Of a stretch of 64,000 bases of DNA, positions 13,297 to 53,048 are shown in pieces. A program made the position numbers and the translations under genes. The notes beneath the pieces are model-generated. The model ran no database searches. It had not been told where the DNA came from and saw only the letters and a list, made by a program, of their open reading frames with translations. The stretch's first letter is position 1; every line of letters begins with the position of its first letter. Source of the stretch: Octopus sinensis (Eukaryota); NCBI RefSeq assembly GCF_006345805.1, contig NW_021832860.1, positions 32,401 to 96,400 on the forward strand. Reading direction: 5' to 3'.

Positions 13297-14123
13297 TTTT
13301 TTCAGCAATATATATATTCTAAAATATTTTATTTATTTCCCTAAGTGTGTCTTTCTGTGTGTAAACAAAAGGATTTTGGTAGATAAAATACTGACTGATT
13401 TTTTTCTGGTTTTGGGACTGAAATATCGGGGTCATGTTCCACATCACTTTTGTTAAATTGCAAAGATTTGCAAGGAAATTAAGTTAGTAATTAGGGAGCA
13501 GCGGTGTGACGAAAATTTTGATACGTCATGAAATGAATGAAAACTGAATATAAAAGCTTTTGTGTTCTTTCAAATAGTGATGCATACTCTCCTATTTAAT
13601 AGCATCCAAATATTACTTCATGTAAAATTTTAAATTAATTTATTTAACACCACTCTCTTTTAATCCACTCGTATAAACTGCTCGTGTGGGTTTTAAAACT
13701 TTAGCTCTACGTCAGCTGAATAACAAGATAAATAAATGCAATGTTTGTGGTTAAGATACAAATTTAACGTCAACTGATATCAAACAGTTTTGTTTCATAA
13801 CAAAAAAAAAGAAAACTTATTTTTTCCACCCACGTTAATCACGTGTTATTTGAAGAATTCACGAGGGGAACATTTCCTGAATGGGCAATGGTAATTGATT
13901 TTTCTGTTGTGAAATGGATATCTAAATTGTGAAGACATATTTGATTACTGCCGGAAGTGAACCAATTCCAATTTATCATCGGATAGAGCCAGAAAATTAA
14001 TTACTAAAATCTTTCTTCAAAATGTAAATAAATTTCTGCAATAACGTCTGACTTTTAGAAAGCTGAGTAAGAACACATCAATATTGTTACATGGCTATAG
14101 AATTTTAGTGTGCCTTAAACAAT

Positions 14124-14167
<44 letters not shown>

Positions 14168-14169
<2 letters not shown>

Positions 14170-14637
14170 TAAGATAGAGAAATTAAGGCCAACAGACCTA
14201 GATAGAGAAATTAAGGCCAACAGACCAGATATAGTTGTCAGAGATCATGAAGAAAAAAAATGCTTTCTAATTGATGTATCAATACCGGCAGATGACAACG
14301 TGTCTCTAAAAGAAATGGAGAAACTCTCAAAATACAAAGACCTGGAAATAGAGGTAACTAGAATGTGGAACCTGAAAACAGAAACAATTCCTATCATAGT
14401 AGGTGCATTAGGCATGATAAAAAAATATTCAGACAAATACATAACAAAAACACCAGGACTTACAAACACATATAACATACAGAAAATTGCACTACTAGGC
14501 ACTGCACACATCCTACGCAGAACACTTTCCATACAATAACCATCAGAGCATCACAACAAATCACAGCACATACCCAAGGCACACAGAGCTGCGCTCGGTA
14601 GTGAAGTGAAAGCACGCTATAAAAATAAAACTACTGA
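14168..14637 (+). mobile_element. 5'-truncated R4/Dong-like LINE (RLE domain plus 3' UTR) in (TAA)n
   Basis: NRPDIVVRD...CFLIDVSIP...KLSKYKDL...IQKIALLGTAHILRRTL, a PD-(D/E)xK RLE. Flanked by (TAA)n; nearly identical to the 3' part of 52453-53048. Confidence 0.92.
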
Positions 14638-17608: not shown

Positions 17609-19586
17609 ATAGGCTCTCTGCTATGTGTGTGTGTACGTGCGTGTGTGTGTGTTCAGTGTTTGTGAGTGTGTATGTAAGTGTAAAATAGAAAACAATAATC
17701 AATATTCCGACAAGGTTTTATTGGAGACTTTTGTGCTACACACGCGCGCACGCATAAATTTACATCATATCACAATATTAACAACAGACAATGAAGAAAT
17801 AAGTAATGACAAATGTTTTTGTGCTATAATCGAATTCCAAATAAACAACATAACACCGTATATAACATTTGTACGTCTCTCTTTTTCTTGCAGGCTTCCA
17901 CTCGACACACCACAATTTTAACAACAAACAATGATGGACTATATGCTAGCTACAGAGGCAGTAATTATACCTCGGAGTATTAATACTACCTCTGTCGCTA
18001 ATATAGACTTTTCTCTCAAACCCACTGATTAATCTCTCATGGTATCTACCGTATGGCTTTCTCTAACACAGGGTAAAAATGTTAAAGACCCTCCTTCGGC
18101 CATGAATGACCATAGGATTGCACAAGTCCGGGTAAGGTTGTTTATGGAAGATCAGCAGTCGCCCATCTATACCAGCCTCCGCTCTCCACGCCACGAATGT
18201 TATCCAAGTGAAAGGCAAACACCGATACATCTGTAGAAGACACTTGCTCAAGGTGCCACGCGGTGGGACTGAACCCGGAACCATGTGGCTAGTAAGCAAG
18301 CTACTTACCACACAGTGACTCCTTAATACTGTATCTGTCGCAAATAGATATCTTTTCTAGAGCTGACTGGCTAATCGCGACACCAACGCCTATTCTGGCA
18401 CTGTTTTTTTTCTATATATTGCTGGTGGGGAAACGGTTGTGCGCCCATCATTGAGAAAACTAAGGAAGGTAGAAATAACGTGATCTGGTGGTTTCTGCGC
18501 TTGAGGCAGCGGGGATTTACCTCCCTACTAGCGACATAAACAAGAGTGCACTTTGTGCCAAAAGCCAATATGAGATCTTCTCTGGTGGTATCTACCGCAG
18601 TAGGGATTCTTAAAGATTACCTCTCAATAATGAAATAATTTCATCATAATTCTCATTTTATTTATTTCACTCATTAGACTGCAGACATGCAGAGGCGCAA
18701 CCTTGAAGAATTTTTGATCGAATGAATCGACCCCAGAGCATTTTTTAAAGCCTGGTACACATTCTATGGAGTTCTTTTGCCGAACCGCTAAGTTACGTTG
18801 GTGGGGGGCAAAGACACAAAGACACGCGCACAAGATATGTATGGCGGTGCCCCAGCATGGCCACAGCTCGTGAGCTGAAACTACAATCAATCAATCATAT
18901 ACGATAGGATTCTTTCAGTTTTCCTCTACCAAATCCATTCACAATACTTTTATCGGCCCGGGGCTTGCCCACGGTGTCATGTTGCTTCTAAACAATTGTA
19001 CAGTTTTACAACAATACAATATTTCATGATAGTTGTACTAAAATGATTCTACGGAACAACATAATTGCCGCCAAACAGTGTTTTCCTTTACCAAAGCCAT
19101 TCACAATGTTTCTATCGGCCTGGGGCTTGCACAATGTGTCACGAAATTGCTTCTAAACATAATTGTAAGATTTCATGACTGTTGTACTAAAATGATGCTA
19201 CGGTACACAATATTCATGAAATCAACACAAAAGAACTTAATCACTAATAAAAATGTAAGCAAATTCTTTTACAAATTATTTTGCCAAGTTTCTTTCGCTT
19301 GGAACCTAAAGTGAAGCATACTCTATCATTTCTGCTATTGGCACAAGTCCCGAAATATTTGGTGAGGAGGGAGTTAATCGATTATATCGACCCCAGTGCA
19401 AGACTGGTGCTTATTTTATTGACTGTGAAATGAAAAGGCGACCTCGGCGGAACCTGAACTCACAAGGTAAAGTCAGCCGAAATACCACTAAGAATTTAAT
19501 TCTGTGTGCAAATGATTCTGCCAGTTCTCAGTCTTGCAGTGAAGCATAATTATTGCTTTCAGATTTATATATATATCAATATATAT

Positions 19587-19644
<58 letters not shown>

Positions 19645-19807
19645 TGACGCATATTTGCCATTTGAATATGGCTAACCCCATAGGGTGGATGCTACTGTAG
19701 TTTGTAGCCCCAGGAAGATACCTCCTCCAGCTGGCTATAGACACACTATCTGTGCCCTATCAGTATTTGTGAAGGGAAGTCATCCTTCTCGTCTTCAACT
19801 TATGATA

Positions 19808-19852
19808 CACACGGACTCGAGTTTCAAGGTGTTTACCTATCATCAGCGTGTG
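19808..19852 (-). ncRNA. type I hammerhead ribozyme (inverted copy)
   Basis: Exact reverse complement of 19958-20002. Confidence 0.85.
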
Positions 19853-19957
19853 ACAGTCATAGTTGTCGACGAGAATTCAGTTTCCCTCACAAATACATAT
19901 ACTTTTTCCAGTGTCGATTGTGAGGGAAACTGAATTCTCGTCGACAACTGTGATTGT

Positions 19958-20002
19958 CACACGCTGATGATAGGTAAACACCTTGAAACTCGAGTCCGTG
20001 TG
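19958..20002 (+). ncRNA. minimal type I hammerhead ribozyme
   Basis: cacacg CTGATGA t aggt aaac acct t GAAA ctcgag TC cgtgtg: 6-bp stem I, 4-bp stem II, palindromic stem III ACTCGAGT, GUC cleavage site. Confidence 0.88.
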
Positions 20003-20280
20003 TATCATAAGTTGAAGACGGGAAGGATGACTTCCCTTCACAAATACTGATAGGGCGCAGATAGTGTGTCTATAGCCAGCTAGAGGAGGTATCTTCCTGA
20101 GGCTACAAACTACAGTAGCATCCACCCTTAGGGGTTAGCCATATTCAAATGGCAAATATGCGTCACGATGTGTTACCGCTACTGTTTATAACTCGCTCTG
20201 AGATTTATCATTGCTTGATTTCACTTTTTCAATATCAGTGTCAATCGACACTGGAAAAAGTATATGTATTTGTGAGGGAA

Positions 20281-20994
20281 ACCGAACTTTTAGAAATAGC
20301 AGCCAAAAAATTTTAGCTACTTCCTCTACTATAAGAAAAGTCTCCCAGACAATGTTTTAAATATACCGTAAATAGTCTTTTTACTTACTGAACACTACTT
20401 GGTAAAATTGATAATTAACAATTAATTAATTTTACCCTTTTATTATTGACAAAATAATTCTTTCTCCCTGATAATAAACTACAGATCCCTCTGTAGGGAC
20501 TTGTTGCTCTATAACTCACGTGGGTGGACGAGGGAGGTTACAGAGTCTCATTCGTACTTTTTGAATTCGTTAATACTAGCGGTCGAAGATGGTTTGTCTG
20601 GGATTACTCATATCAGACGGGTATGTTCGATTTTTAGTGCTCTCAAACCTTGGGCTGATGACGGAAATGTTGATCTCTATATCCAACTAATCCAGAAACG
20701 GCGTTCTCAAGTAATCGATGTACGCGTGATCTTTCGTTATTTTTGCCTCTATACCTACGTGAATTATTTTTGAGTATACATTGTCTGGGAGACTTTTCTT
20801 ATACTAGAGGAAATAGCTAAACTTTTTTGGCTGTTATTTCTAAAAGTTCGGTGTGTGGTAAAGTAAATTATTTCACTGAACCCTAATTATATAACGTAAA
20901 GTTTTAAATATACCGTAAATGGTCTTTTTACATACTGAACACTACTTGGTAAAATTGATAATTAATAATTAATTAATTTTACCCTTTTATTATT

Positions 20995-20998
<4 letters not shown>
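20281..20998 (+). mobile_element. hammerhead-bearing unit E2: 547-nt monomer, ~97-nt terminal direct repeat, inverted 5' segment
   Basis: 20354-20450 repeats at 20901-20998; ~20281-20355 is the reverse complement of ~20779-20853; 3' end runs into (TA)n. Confidence 0.75.
20649..20711 (+). ncRNA. type I hammerhead ribozyme
   Basis: cttggg CTGATGA c gga aat gttg...caac taa tcc a GAAA cggcg TT ctcaag: stem I 6 bp with one G-U, GUU site. Confidence 0.75.
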
Positions 20999-21068
<70 letters not shown>

Positions 21069-21116: not shown

Positions 21117-21176
21117 GTTTAGCTGATGAAGGAAAAGTTTTCATTTAACTAGACTAGAAATTGATCGTTCCTAAAC
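21117..21176 (+). ncRNA. degenerate hammerhead-like motif (E3)
   Basis: gtttag CTGATGA...GAAA ttgatcgt TC ctaaac: stem I perfect, stems II and III imperfect; unit lies between (TA)n tracts. Confidence 0.4.
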
Positions 21177-21262
21177 TTCCGGAATAGTTTATGAATTTCT
21201 ATATGCCCGCTTCCTCGCTTTCAACAAATGTGATATATATATATATATATATATAATATATA

Positions 21263-21476: not shown

Positions 21477-21479
21477 TGT

Positions 21480-21725
21480 GTGTGTGTGTGTGTGTGTGTG
21501 TGTTTGTGTGTGTATAGAAAGAGAGAGAGTGCATGTTATAAAATCCATTATTAGAATATAAAACAGTCAAAACCAAACTCTCAGGTTAAAGAAATTATAA
21601 TTTAAGATTATAAACACCTGCTTTCTTGTTTTATTAATTTCGCCTATTACTTAATGCTTAGGAATACATTTCTTCGGATAGTTTTATTTATGTGTGTGCG
21701 TGTGTGTGTTTAAGAGAAGATATGC

Positions 21726-21761
<36 letters not shown>

Positions 21762-22545
21762 GGGGAAGAAAGAGACAAAGAGAGAGGCAGAAAGAGAAAC
21801 TCACAACATCAAACATTATGAAACCGTAAACCCTAGAAGAGTGTATATGGTTATAAACATGTACTTGGGGAAGGGGGCTTGAATAATGGCCCTCCCCACT
21901 TATTAATTCTTCAGATCCCCCCACTGCTGTTATCCCCCTCTCTTTATTGATATAACAGCTAGACAATCTAATAATTATTGTATTTTACGTTAAAATATAT
22001 ATATACTAGCAGAAAATCACCTTCCTGACGATTTTTTGCAAGTCACTTGATATTAATTTCACATTTGATTTCCAATTGTAATAATTTTTAAGATAAATTA
22101 CGTCTAATTATTTCTTTGTATAATAGTACCCATTTGCTTAGTAAGTATTGTTTTCATTATTTTATCACAGTCAAAATCTCTCTTTTTTAAGCAAACATCA
22201 AGGTAGTCCCACTACGAGGGAGGCAGTTTGTTAAGTTTAACTTTCCTCTCAAAGCAATATAGAGATTTCAGTTGAGCAGCCCTTCTATAAGCTTTGCAGT
22301 GTGTGTGTGTGTGTGTGTGTGTGTTTGTGTGTGTATAGAAAGAGAGAGAGTGCATGTTATAAAATCCATTATTAGAATATAAAACAGTCAAAACCAAACT
22401 CTCAGGTTAAAGAAATATAATTTAAGATTATAAACACCTGCTTTCTTGTTTTATTAATTTCGCCTATTACTTAATGCTTAGGAATACATTTCTTCGGATA
22501 GTTTTATTTATGTGTGTGCGTGTGTGTGTTTAAGAGAAGATATGC

Positions 22546-22585
<40 letters not shown>

Positions 22586-23125
22586 CAGAAAGAGAAACTC
22601 ACAACATCAAACATTATGAAACCGTAAACCCTAGAAGAGTGTATATGGTTATAAACATGTACTTGGGGAAGGGGGCTTGAATAATGGCCCTCCCCACTTA
22701 TTAATTCTTCAGATCCCCCCACTGCTGTTATCCCCCTCTCTTTATTGATATAACAGCTAGACAATCTAATAATTATTGTATTTTACGTTAAAATATATAT
22801 ATACTAGCAGAAAATCACCTTCCTGACGATTTTTTGCAAGTCACTTGATATTAATTTCACATTTGATTTCCAATTGTAATAATTTTTAAGATAAATTACG
22901 TCTAATTATTTCTTTGTATAATAGTACCCATTTGCTTAGTAAGTATTGTTTTCATTATTTTATCACAGTCAAAATCTCTCTTTTTTAAGCAAACATCAAG
23001 GTAGTCCCACTACAGAGGGGAGGCAGTTTGTTAAGTTTAACTTTCCTCTCAAAGCAATATAGAGATTTCAGTTGAGCAGCCCTTCTATAAGCTTTGCAGT
23101 GTGTGTGTGTGTGTGTGTGTGTGTT
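21480..23125 (+). repeat. ~800 bp tandem duplication with (GT)n at the boundaries
   Basis: ~21500-22299 is nearly identical to ~22300-23099. Confidence 0.92.
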
Positions 23126-23694
23126 TGAGAGAGAGGGGCAGGAAGAGAGAACATTGCAAACAGTAAATGAAATATACATGAAATGAGAAAATAGTATGAA
23201 TAAAAAGACATAACTACACATGTATACACCCTCGACATTGTTGCCTCACAACATCCAAAAAAATGGATTCTTTTTAATTAAATTTTTTACAAATACCGCT
23301 TAGATGTTGTAGCTTCAGAGTATATAGGGATTTATCAGAAATAATTTTTTCGAGGGGGCGGGGAGAGAAGACTTTGGTAAAATTCACGCGATCCGACGTT
23401 TTTCCCTCATAACTTCCAGGAAACTTCCAGGTATTTTTTAATGGAAATTTATGCAAATACCTTTCAAACTACATAAATTACGATTATAAAGAAATTTGTG
23501 GGGAAAATCTTTTCCGCGGGTTTGGAGAGAGTAGTTTCTGATCAGGAAGATCAATTAAGTTACAACTATGTTTTGACGGGAATTTTCCCCATTTTTTTTT
23601 TAAATCACAGCCTTCGAAATGGTGGGGCTGGGGGTATCTTTGTATGAGAAAGTTTCGAAATGTTTTTTTAGAACTCCATCTCCCTTATCATCCC

Positions 23695-29666: not shown

Positions 29667-29698
29667 TACGCGATAAAGAAGCAACAGAATGATACGGT

Positions 29699-29792
29699 TT
29701 TTAGTACAATCGTTTCATCATACAAGGAACCGCTTATTAAAAGTTGCAAAAAAATTACAGCAATAAACGTGTCCCGTACTCATCAGCTAAAA
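29699..29792 (-). ncRNA. type I hammerhead ribozyme with extended stem II
   Basis: Minus strand ttttag CTGATGA gtacgggacacgtttatt...aataagcggttccttgtatgat GAAA cgattg TA ctaaaa; GUA site. Confidence 0.75.
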
Positions 29793-30435
29793 TACCGATG
29801 TGATTCTCTAGACATCCTAGTGGTTGAGGTTATACTCATGAAGTATGTAGATAATTAAGTCCATACCACAAGATTCAAAGTTCATTAAAGTTCTTTAAAA
29901 TATGTACAGTCTTTATCACATAATTTACAAAAAGTTTTAATAGCATCACAGAGAAGGTGACCTAACCTAGTGCACATATGAATTTCCAGAGATATGAGGA
30001 GGGATTACATACTCACAGACGACAAATTTATCCATTGTTAATCACACAAGACGAGGTGGGTCTCAATTCCTACATTAGCATTACCGAGAGGGTGCATTTA
30101 ATTCACTTTGTATAATCAAAGGATTAATTCACCCTCTCTGTAATGCTAATAAGCAGGAATTGAGACCCACCTCGTTGTGATTAACATGGATAAATTTGTC
30201 GTCTGTGAGTATGTAATCCCTCCTCATATCTCTGGAAATTCATATGTGCACTATGGTTATGTCACCTTCTCTGTGGATGCTAATTACAACTTTTTGTTTA
30301 AAATTCTGTTGAAATACTGTACATCATCTTTAAAGAACTTTAATGAACTTTGGAAATTGTTTATGTTACTTAATTATCTACATTACTTCATGAGTATAGC
30401 CTCAACCCTAGGATGTCTAGAGAAACTCACATGTA

Positions 30436-30528
30436 TTTTAGCTGATGAGTACGGGACACGTTATATACTGCTGTAATTTTGCAACTTTTAATAAGGCCTG
30501 TCCTTGTATGAAAACGATTGTACTAAAA
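30436..30528 (+). ncRNA. type I hammerhead ribozyme, other arm of E4
   Basis: ttttag CTGATGA gtacgggaca...tgtccttgtat GAAA a cgattg TA ctaaaa. Confidence 0.7.
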
Positions 30529-30702
30529 ACCTATCCATTCTGGTTGTTGCTTTTCTTTCTCGCTTATAATCACCCCACATTACTGTATTGTTAAAAAACA
30601 GTATAGTTTTTTTTTTTGCTGCATCTAAGTTAGGTTACCATATTCAAGTAAATTCATTTAAATTAACTTGAATCTTTATTGCTTTTTGTATATATAATAT
30701 AT

Positions 30703-35474: not shown

Positions 35475-36900
35475 TTGATGAAAAACTCACAGCTTATTTT
35501 ACTGGGTATGGTGGAAAGTGTCAGCTGTCCACAGTCAGCAGACTAAGGTGACACTTGTTTACTGGTGATGCTTTAATAACCCAGTGAAGGATTCTTGCAC
35601 TTCCAAACAATGTTAACTTTTATAGATGTTCTACTTTTACATTTGTATCATTCTTTTTCATAATAATGATAGATTTTTTATAGATTCCTGAATCCTATCA
35701 TTATTTTTCTTGTTTCCCTGTCTATTTTGATTAGTTCATTTAATGTCCAGTAAAGGATATTGTAGCTGTAACTTAAAACTGGAACGTCTAAAGTGTTGTC
35801 ACCTATTATCTTGTTTTTAGCATTGAGCTCTGTTTTTAATATTGATCTAACTCGTCTATAGTATTCTTTATTATTTTCTCTTTCATTTGTGTGTGTTGTA
35901 TCGTATCTAGTTCATGATTCCGAAATATTTGTATATCCGGCTTTGGTTTAATTCTCTTATTTCATTTGCTTTATCTAGTGTGATGTTGCTACTCTTAACT
36001 AGTTTTCCTCTTTTCAAGGTTGCTTTGGCATATTTTTCTAAACCAAATTTCTTATTTATTTCTTTGGAAAATCTCTGTAGTAATGTTTCCAGCTGTTTAT
36101 CATTTGTAGTGTACAGTTTTAGGTCATCCATATATAAGAGGTGGCTGATTGTTTTGCCGTAACCATTGTATTCGCATCCAGTTCTGTTTAGCATATCAGA
36201 TAAAGGTGTCAATGCCAAGCAGAAAAGGAGTGGAGAGAGAGTGTCTCCCTAGAATATTCCTCTTCTAATGGAAATGCCTTTGGTTTTTATGAGTCCCTCT
36301 TTTGTTTGGAGCTGTAGCATTGTCTGCCATTTATTCATAGAGTGTTGTATATATTTTCTGGTTATTGGTGCTACCTTGTTCATGGCTAGTGCTTCTAGGA
36401 CCCATGTGTGGGGAATACTATCAAAAGCCTTTCGGTAATCAAACCAGGCCATAGTTAGACCTTTCTTCTTTCTGCGGCTGTCTTCGGTTATGGCTCTATT
36501 GATCATTACTTGATCTTTACAGCCGTATCAGCCCTTGCAGCATCCCTTCTGCTTTTCTGGAAACGGGTTGTTTTCTTCCAGATGCTTGCTCGTCCTCTGC
36601 GATATTATTGCAGTAAAGGCTTTGTAAATTGTAGGGAAACAAGTAATTGGTCTGTACTTTGTGGGTTTGCCGTTTCAGTGGATATGGAAATTAGGATAGT
36701 TTTCCCTTTCGTGAGCCATTCAGGCATTATCTCTGGCTCTGATAGTATGTCGTTAAAGTTTCCAGCCAGTTTTTTGTGTATTTCAGTCAGATATTTTAAC
36801 CAGCAGTTGGGGATCTTGTCGTGCCCAGGTGCCTTCCAGTTGCTTAGTTTTTGCAGTGTCTGGGTGACCTCTTCCGTTGTTATAGGGGTTTAGAATTGTT
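35475..36900 (-). mobile_element. Dong/R4-like LINE, decayed RT region plus 3' end
   Basis: NWKAPGHDKIP, MAWFDYRKAFDSIPH, IRRGIF, SHLLYMDDLKLY, FGLEK, YKYFG; 3' UTR shared with ~25390-25470. Confidence 0.9.

Positions 36901-51847: not shown

Positions 51848-53048
<1,201 letters not shown>

Follow-up and report, generated by a model that had tools for sequence, protein, structure and literature searches.

A probable Penelope-mobilised element of the retrozyme kind, fused to a second hammerhead element in Octopus sinensis

The element E2, which lies next to a second hammerhead-bearing element (E1) in the window (the whole 64,000-nucleotide stretch of Octopus sinensis DNA that was analysed), is most probably, at about 85%, a non-autonomous element of the non-LTR retrozyme kind that is mobilised by Penelope-type machinery. 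The traits of retrozymes found in E2 are a type I hammerhead motif, a unit that runs head-to-tail in other copies, a non-coding sequence, a GC content below 50% and a predicted RNA fold in which the unit pairs with itself. Retrozymes with two ribozymes differ in that one E2 ribozyme is present at the locus; this fits the monomer class of Li et al., and the copy is probably a dead-end monomer with a single motif. The traits of Penelope-like insertions found are a partial tandem with an adjacent inverted and 5'-truncated copy, (TA)n on both sides and a fixed 3' end. An earlier sequence-only reading had taken a partial-tandem pLTR with an inverted 5' segment as the signature of a Penelope-like insertion. 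The Penelope-type architecture stood, but the inverted piece is not a standard inverted pLTR, since its outer end (20852) is internal and stops 145 nt short of the E2 family 3' end, and a closed non-coding unit of 547 nt is a better reading of E2 than a pLTR stump of a coding element.

The window is AT-rich and dense in microsatellites; it has the look of animal DNA and may resemble octopus repeats. Four segments (E1 minus, E1 plus, E2 minus and E2 plus) lie between two (TA)n tracts, with the following features:

19566..19642, no strand: left (TA)n tract (target)
19641..19920, minus strand: E1 inverted arm, abutting the left TA run at the E1 family 3' end
19918..20282, plus strand: E1 sense arm, a 352-nt unit plus 13 nt
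20281..20288, no strand: E1/E2 tail-to-tail junction, sharing 2 bases (20281-82) and lacking a TA remnant
20281..20355, minus strand: inverted E2 piece, the reverse complement of 20778-20852 (71/75)
20351..20450, plus strand: terminal redundancy, equal to the last 100 nt of the preceding E2 unit (96/100 to 20898-20997)
20451..20997, plus strand: full E2 unit, 547 nt, GC 35%, stopping at the E2 family 3' end
20649..20711, plus strand: E2 type I hammerhead motif, with the cut predicted after GUU 20705
20998..21066, no strand: right (TA)n tract (target)

The two E1 arms overlap by 3 nt. The inverted arm carries a hammerhead at 19846-19814 (minus strand) and the sense arm a hammerhead core from 19964 with a GUC triplet ending at 19996; the sense arm extends 113 nt beyond the E1 family 3' end (20169). 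E2 plus covers 20351-20997 (647 nt), and the E2 copy amounts to 1.18 units. The inverted E2 piece overlaps the sense part by 5 nt (20351-20355), a microhomology of 5/5 with the family letter at 20900 and of 4/5 with the window's own letter. The outer ends of the block are the 3' ends of the E1 and E2 families, and neither inner end is. A 547-nt period had been claimed and was recovered as a direct repeat with a spacing of 547; its bounds (20354-20450 and 20901-20998) had to be moved, as the repeat begins 3 nt earlier and the TA run already starts at 20998. The inverted segment of about 75 nt, said to be fused to E1, indeed joins it without TA between. At the junction, E1 and E2 as they would naturally continue agree at 6 of 8 positions, and a likeness of at least 6/8 has a chance of 0.005 over 192,544 position pairs, for a comparison size picked post hoc. 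A 30-40 bp tail was not recognised in E2, and a target duplication is unreadable within (TA)n. By blastn no further E1 or E2 copy was found in the 64-kb window outside the block.

The occurrence of E1 and E2 in other copies was assessed in contigs of 4 of 24 public runs, aligned to 19893-21008 at 85% likeness (2959, 5486, 1877 and 533 aligned contig records per run). The listings covered 40 of the 132 substitutions, 15 of the 29 joints, 24 of the 836 loose ends and 32 of the 11,022 pieces. None of the runs listed is on record as RNA, which speaks neither for nor against expression. In the contig sequences E1 and E2 are separate multi-copy families. The E1:E2 depth ratio in the ribozyme bins was about 63, 81, 126 and 17 in the four runs, which is neither 1 nor constant, depth not being the same as copy number. 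Loose ends before 20289 were like the antisense continuation of E2 and not like E1 in three of four runs (10, 12 and 4 records). E1 returned to its own start (joint 20269 to 19918) in all four runs, and E1 copies stopped at 20166 or 20169 in (TA)n in three of them. The E1/E2 junction was bridged by none of the 32 pieces listed of 11,022. A separate search for the two elements had been proposed, with the idea of two elements at risk if E1 and E2 always co-occurred; the two families were found apart in the contigs. Homology between E1 and E2 was not detected by blastn (best E 0.97), and common ancestry by sequence was dropped on that ground. Scans of metagenome contig collections gave 0 and 0 matches, and 12 loci in a viral contig collection were treated as chance, having neither blastn likeness to E1 or E2 nor stem I pairing.

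For the fusion itself, template switching and sequential insertion had been offered as alternatives. We lean towards two successive insertions in one TA tract, with loss of the inner ends at a microhomology. This origin is favoured because each half, taken by itself, is laid out as an independent insertion would be, inverted and head-to-head, because TA is the target of both families and, 125 nt further right, there is a third hammerhead-like motif, and because PMC3846280 describes cross-family Penelope nesting, microhomology junctions and microhomology deletions. It has to account for the absence of a TA remnant at the E1/E2 junction and for two inner ends that must have been lost or never made. 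The repeated parts differ at 9/295 positions in E1 and 8/175 in E2 (p 0.45, with little power at 17 mismatches in total), and departures from the family letters amount to 5/365 and 12/717 (p 0.80). The ages of E1 and E2 are indistinguishable, and one event therefore fits equally well.

Such a single event is a less likely alternative. E1 RNA would have served as template at the left target strand and E2 RNA at the right one, both from their usual start sites, or one polymerase would have changed from one RNA to the other, and the products would have been joined through microhomology. A single event would explain why both outer ends are family 3' ends that face outward, as in one inverted Penelope insertion, and why the junction is devoid of TA, but it requires four segments and three switches in one event, while each half already resembles a complete insertion. 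The microhomology at all three junctions, including the 6/8 likeness of E1 and E2 (chance 0.005), agrees with it, yet end-joining predicts microhomology equally; the indistinguishable ages also agree, on an age test that is underpowered. Purified Penelope protein, a predicted dimer, cuts and extends both strands according to PMC11167929, whereas head-to-head is the most frequent arrangement in PMC3846280 and the E1/E2 junction is tail-to-tail. Two other schemes were dropped: a clean nested insertion of E2 in E1, as no E1 remainder lies to the right of E2, and a simple fold-back as the sole source of the E1 sense arm, as this arm extends 113 nt further than the inverted arm does.

The 20450/20451 junction was bridged by three diverged pieces (of the 32 listed), with 9-18 other letters and at least 32 letters on each side; the end-to-start wrap of the unit is thus present in other E2 copies. 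Two listed pieces continue from 20997 into TA, and one of the two has 11 other letters. At least seven other E2 inversion joints were present among the 15 of 29 joints listed (20307-20865, 20311-20876, 20313-20917, 20330-20812, 20446/20835, 20606/20911 and 20789/20853), each in one contig per run and with sides of 24-39 letters. The opposite-strand joint 20789/20853 was seen in runs X1 and X2, its direction not being given; 20853 adjoins the point where the inverted piece contacts E1 (20852), and could be a favoured internal priming point or a coincidence. The last 250 nt of E2 had 13-59 times the depth of the ribozyme bin, so most relatives are without this ribozyme part or have diverged from it; this would reflect 5' truncation of most copies or a divergence of subfamilies upstream of about 20745. 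Among the 24 of 836 loose ends listed, those at 20741 and 20750 mark relatives with different upstream sequence. One consensus before 20741 and one before 20750, among the loose ends listed, resemble the window's own upstream sequence, which indicates subfamily divergence.

The longest stop-free stretch in E2 is 107 amino acids and has no Pfam match, and neither E2 nor E1 holds a reverse transcriptase or GIY-YIG endonuclease frame; E2 as an autonomous Penelope element was dropped for lack of such a frame, and an autonomous partner of E2 was not found. As a circle, the sense E2 unit had a predicted fold energy of −137.5 kcal/mol; measured against two sets of 40 shuffles its z was −4.1 and −4.25, and the antisense strand gave a z of −1.7. 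The linear sense unit gave a z of −3.7, and folding as proof of a circle was dropped because the linear unit does as well. In 22 of 65 eligible control stretches that were folded (12 shuffles each) the mean z was −0.7 and the lowest −3.0, E2 lying below all of them. When the family-majority letters (about 72-100% of depth where covered) were introduced at 12 sites, the fold energy changed by −10.5 kcal/mol, versus +5.6 ± 6.0 for random sets with the same substitution types, 0 of 150 of which were as low; taken singly, 8 of the 12 sites lowered the fold energy, 1 was neutral and 3 raised it. E1 behaved alike (z −5.4; substitution test 3/200). The computed folds suggest an RNA structure under selection in the E2 family that may be decaying in this copy. 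Predicted helices link the start of the unit to later parts (20463-68/20787-92 and 20516-26/20752-62, p 0.97-0.99). In these predictions the E1 ends 20166/20169 fall within the loop of a weak stem or next to it (20161-20175 of the window), and the E2 end lies in the loop of a weak AT-rich stem (20444-20458) that is formed across the unit junction only. These 3'-end hairpins bear a weak likeness to the stem-loop initiation in PMC11167929.

It is very unlikely that E2 is the truncated end of a longer autonomous Penelope-like element, with the 547-nt period as a local partial duplication. The far greater depth of its 3' 250 nt and the loose ends at 20741/20750 would suit this, and the whole unit is spanned by none of the 32 pieces listed of 11,022. 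Diverged copies nevertheless share the same 20450/20451 junction, the predicted helices pair the unit start with later parts, E2 has no open reading frame or Pfam domain, and the two loose-end consensuses, among those listed, resemble the window upstream.

The hammerhead that had been placed at 20649-20711 was confirmed as a type I motif by scanning, its activity being a prediction. A scan without a stem II requirement found four hammerhead motifs with a 6-bp stem I in the 64 kb, whereas 100 order-3 Markov simulations yielded 0.09 for the same length. Stem I (20649-54/20706-11) has 6 bp including two G.U pairs, and the core consists of CUGAUGA at 20655-61, GAAA at 20695-98 and the GUU triplet ending at 20705. 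GUU is a slower triplet than GUC. Stem II is interrupted: helices of 3 bp (20663-65/20691-93) and 4 bp (20669-72/20684-87) enclose an internal loop, and the pairing probabilities are 0.76-0.99 in the predicted monomer fold. At its base C20662 and A20694 are unpaired, a non-canonical C.A; as these two bases flank stem II, the G10.1-C11.1 pair does not directly close the E2 core, and this canonical type I feature is absent. Stem III has 2 bp and a GGC loop; it is near-palindromic, with a monomer pairing probability of 0.0 and a self-duplex energy of −8.2 kcal/mol. With the stem III of E1 the duplex energy is just −1.8 kcal/mol, and an E1/E2 heterodimer ribozyme was dropped. The isolated motif folds no better than shuffles (z −0.16), and the active fold of the monomer is not the lowest-energy fold. 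Imposing stems I and II and leaving the core open raises the energy by 3.9 kcal/mol. Accessibility of the ribozyme is therefore predicted, in line with what PMC7229834 reports for most animal retrozymes. Rfam gave 0 hammerhead matches at gathering in the window and none among 24 weak matches, the E1 motif also being missed; the Rfam matches in the window were dismissed as hairpin and TA artefacts. To the right of the right TA tract a third, degenerate hammerhead-like motif was observed (21117-21177, plus strand; CUGAUGA at 21123), with a 6-bp stem I and a broken stem III; it is unlike E1 and E2 outside the core.

Among the 40 of 132 substitutions listed, none falls in 20579-20724 versus 14 in 20451-20578. 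The contrast (p 4e-5) is a hint only, as it uses 13 of the 14 listed sites, a post hoc boundary, 40 of 132 substitutions and an 85% filter. Loss of the core among E2 copies had been named as a finding that would refute the earlier reading of E2, and no substitution in the E2 core was present among the 40 of 132 differences listed. A base inserted behind 20701, at about 5-12% of depth in three of four runs, gives a perfect-palindrome stem III. PMC4209133 describes minimal Penelope hammerheads that act as low-activity dimers; their stem II is long, a base follows A9 and stem III is palindromic. For an axolotl motif whose stem II has a U.U mismatch at its base, PMC7229834 reports weak cleavage by the single motif and better cleavage by the dimer. 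Of 9 retrozyme dimers tested, 8 were without cleavage (bioRxiv 2026.07.22.740005).

The least probable alternative, that the family spreads independently of an inactive or incidental ribozyme motif, or that the E1/E2 junction is an assembly join in the TA tract, can point to the C.A at the base of stem II, the GUU triplet, the missing Rfam match, PAc hammerhead mutants that had no effect on Penelope insertion in vitro (PMC11167929) and a junction found in none of the 32 pieces listed of 11,022, but it runs against a motif far above chance, the substitution-free ribozyme part among the differences listed, the minority variant that perfects stem III and the cleaving axolotl motif with U.U at the equivalent place, and, for the join, against the low chance of meeting a single-copy junction among few listed pieces and the 3-5% differences between the repeated parts, which speak against a library fold-back.

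For E2 as a Penelope-mobilised retrozyme, the following mechanism is proposed. Tandem E2 transcripts would be cut mainly as dimers of two units and perhaps circularised. A Penelope-type reverse transcriptase/endonuclease acting in trans would nick the TA tract and prime at the fixed start 20997, and 647 nt would be copied from a circular RNA or one longer than the unit; as 647 nt is more than one unit, the template must have been a multimer or a circle. The inverted piece may then have been added via the 5-nt microhomology (20351-55), by fold-back of the cDNA or by second-strand priming. L1 twin priming is a comparable case of second-strand priming. Purified Penelope protein cuts AT-rich DNA, extends both strands and starts at fixed internal sites (PMC11167929), and Penelope-like elements form partial tandems and adjacent inverted copies with a (TA)n bias (PMC8557442). 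A bolder scenario, for which the odds are lower still than for a single event as such, would have a dimeric Penelope-type machine make the whole block in one insertion, using E1 RNA on the left and E2 RNA on the right, each from its own start site, and joining the products; here E2 would be a structured 547-nt circle with a working C.A hammerhead, and the genome would have preserved a case of circular ribozyme RNAs from two families being mobilised together.

Other features of the window were recorded. A fourth family forms a head-to-head inverted pair at 29667-30566, 86% identical over 944 aligned columns and lying between TA-rich tracts, with hammerhead motifs at 29786 (minus) and 30442 (plus) that have a long interrupted stem II and a GUA triplet. 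Its plus arm continues for about 120 nt before the next TA tract, which is reminiscent of E1 plus. In a pairwise search, 30553-30570 in its end region matched 20458-20475 at the start of the E2 unit (16/18, E 0.011). A reverse transcriptase fragment lies at 35907-36248 on the minus strand (Pfam RVT_1, E 8e-08). Two near-identical protein-like frames follow (AAT)n runs at 14045-14539 and 52278-52856 (plus strand); Pfam was uninformative, and they may be the endonuclease end of a site-specific non-LTR retrotransposon. At 21478-23127 the sequence is duplicated locally in tandem, almost perfectly, with a period of some 800-820 nt. A dispersed SINE-like repeat is present at 18900-18965 and recurs at no fewer than 10 further sites, with an identity of 73-85% over 40-66 nt.

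Overall, the E2 family would add a large and structured member to the animal non-LTR retrozymes. A fixed 3' end, TA targeting and variable inversions on a protein-less unit are Penelope-type insertion marks, and their presence in E2 supports the proposed, unproven link between retrozymes and Penelope elements. The E2 core offers an atypical ribozyme sequence for assay. If the one-event origin were true, a single insertion could use two RNAs on two target strands, which would give a handle on the Penelope mechanism; if the insertions were sequential, the fusion is an ordinary pile-up of repeats in a microsatellite. In a search of mostly open literature by title and the start of the abstract, no cephalopod hammerhead family and no fusion of two ribozyme elements was found.

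E2 was compared with three known systems. Like animal non-LTR retrozymes (PMC7229834; bioRxiv 10.64898/2026.07.22.740005), E2 has a non-coding unit with one type I hammerhead and a GC content below 50%, a self-paired predicted RNA and a weak palindromic stem III suggesting cleavage as a dimer; for these retrozymes, too, a Penelope-like mobilisation has been proposed. Its 547 nt lie within the 51-972 bp of Li, Clavereau and Pollet 2026 (bioRxiv 10.64898/2026.07.22.740005) and exceed the 170-400 nt of Cervera and de la Pena 2020 (PMC7229834). Unlike them, E2 has 1.18 units with one ribozyme here, and is not 'active' by the rule of Li et al.; its 3' end is fixed and lies in (TA)n, it comes with inverted pieces, it is fused to a second family, and it has a long interrupted stem II with C.A at its base.

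With the insertion units of endonuclease-positive Penelope-like elements (Arkhipova et al. 2013, PMC3846280; Craig et al. 2021, PMC8557442), E2 shares the partial tandem, the head-to-head inversion on the 5' side, a microsatellite target without discernible target duplication, microhomology junctions and a hammerhead upstream of a fixed 3' end. It differs from them in having no reverse transcriptase or GIY-YIG frame, no recognised 30-40 bp tail and an inverted piece whose outer end is internal, and it was assigned to no named clade. From the minimal metazoan Penelope hammerheads (Cervera and de la Pena 2014, PMC4209133) the E2 motif departs by an extra unpaired A before GAAA, the absence of a direct G10.1-C11.1 stack, a 6-bp stem I and the GUU triplet. 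It shares with them the CUGANGA/GAAA/NUH core, the long stem II, the nucleotide after A9 and the palindromic stem III, and with the axolotl HHR_Amex2 (PMC7229834) the mismatch at the base of stem II.
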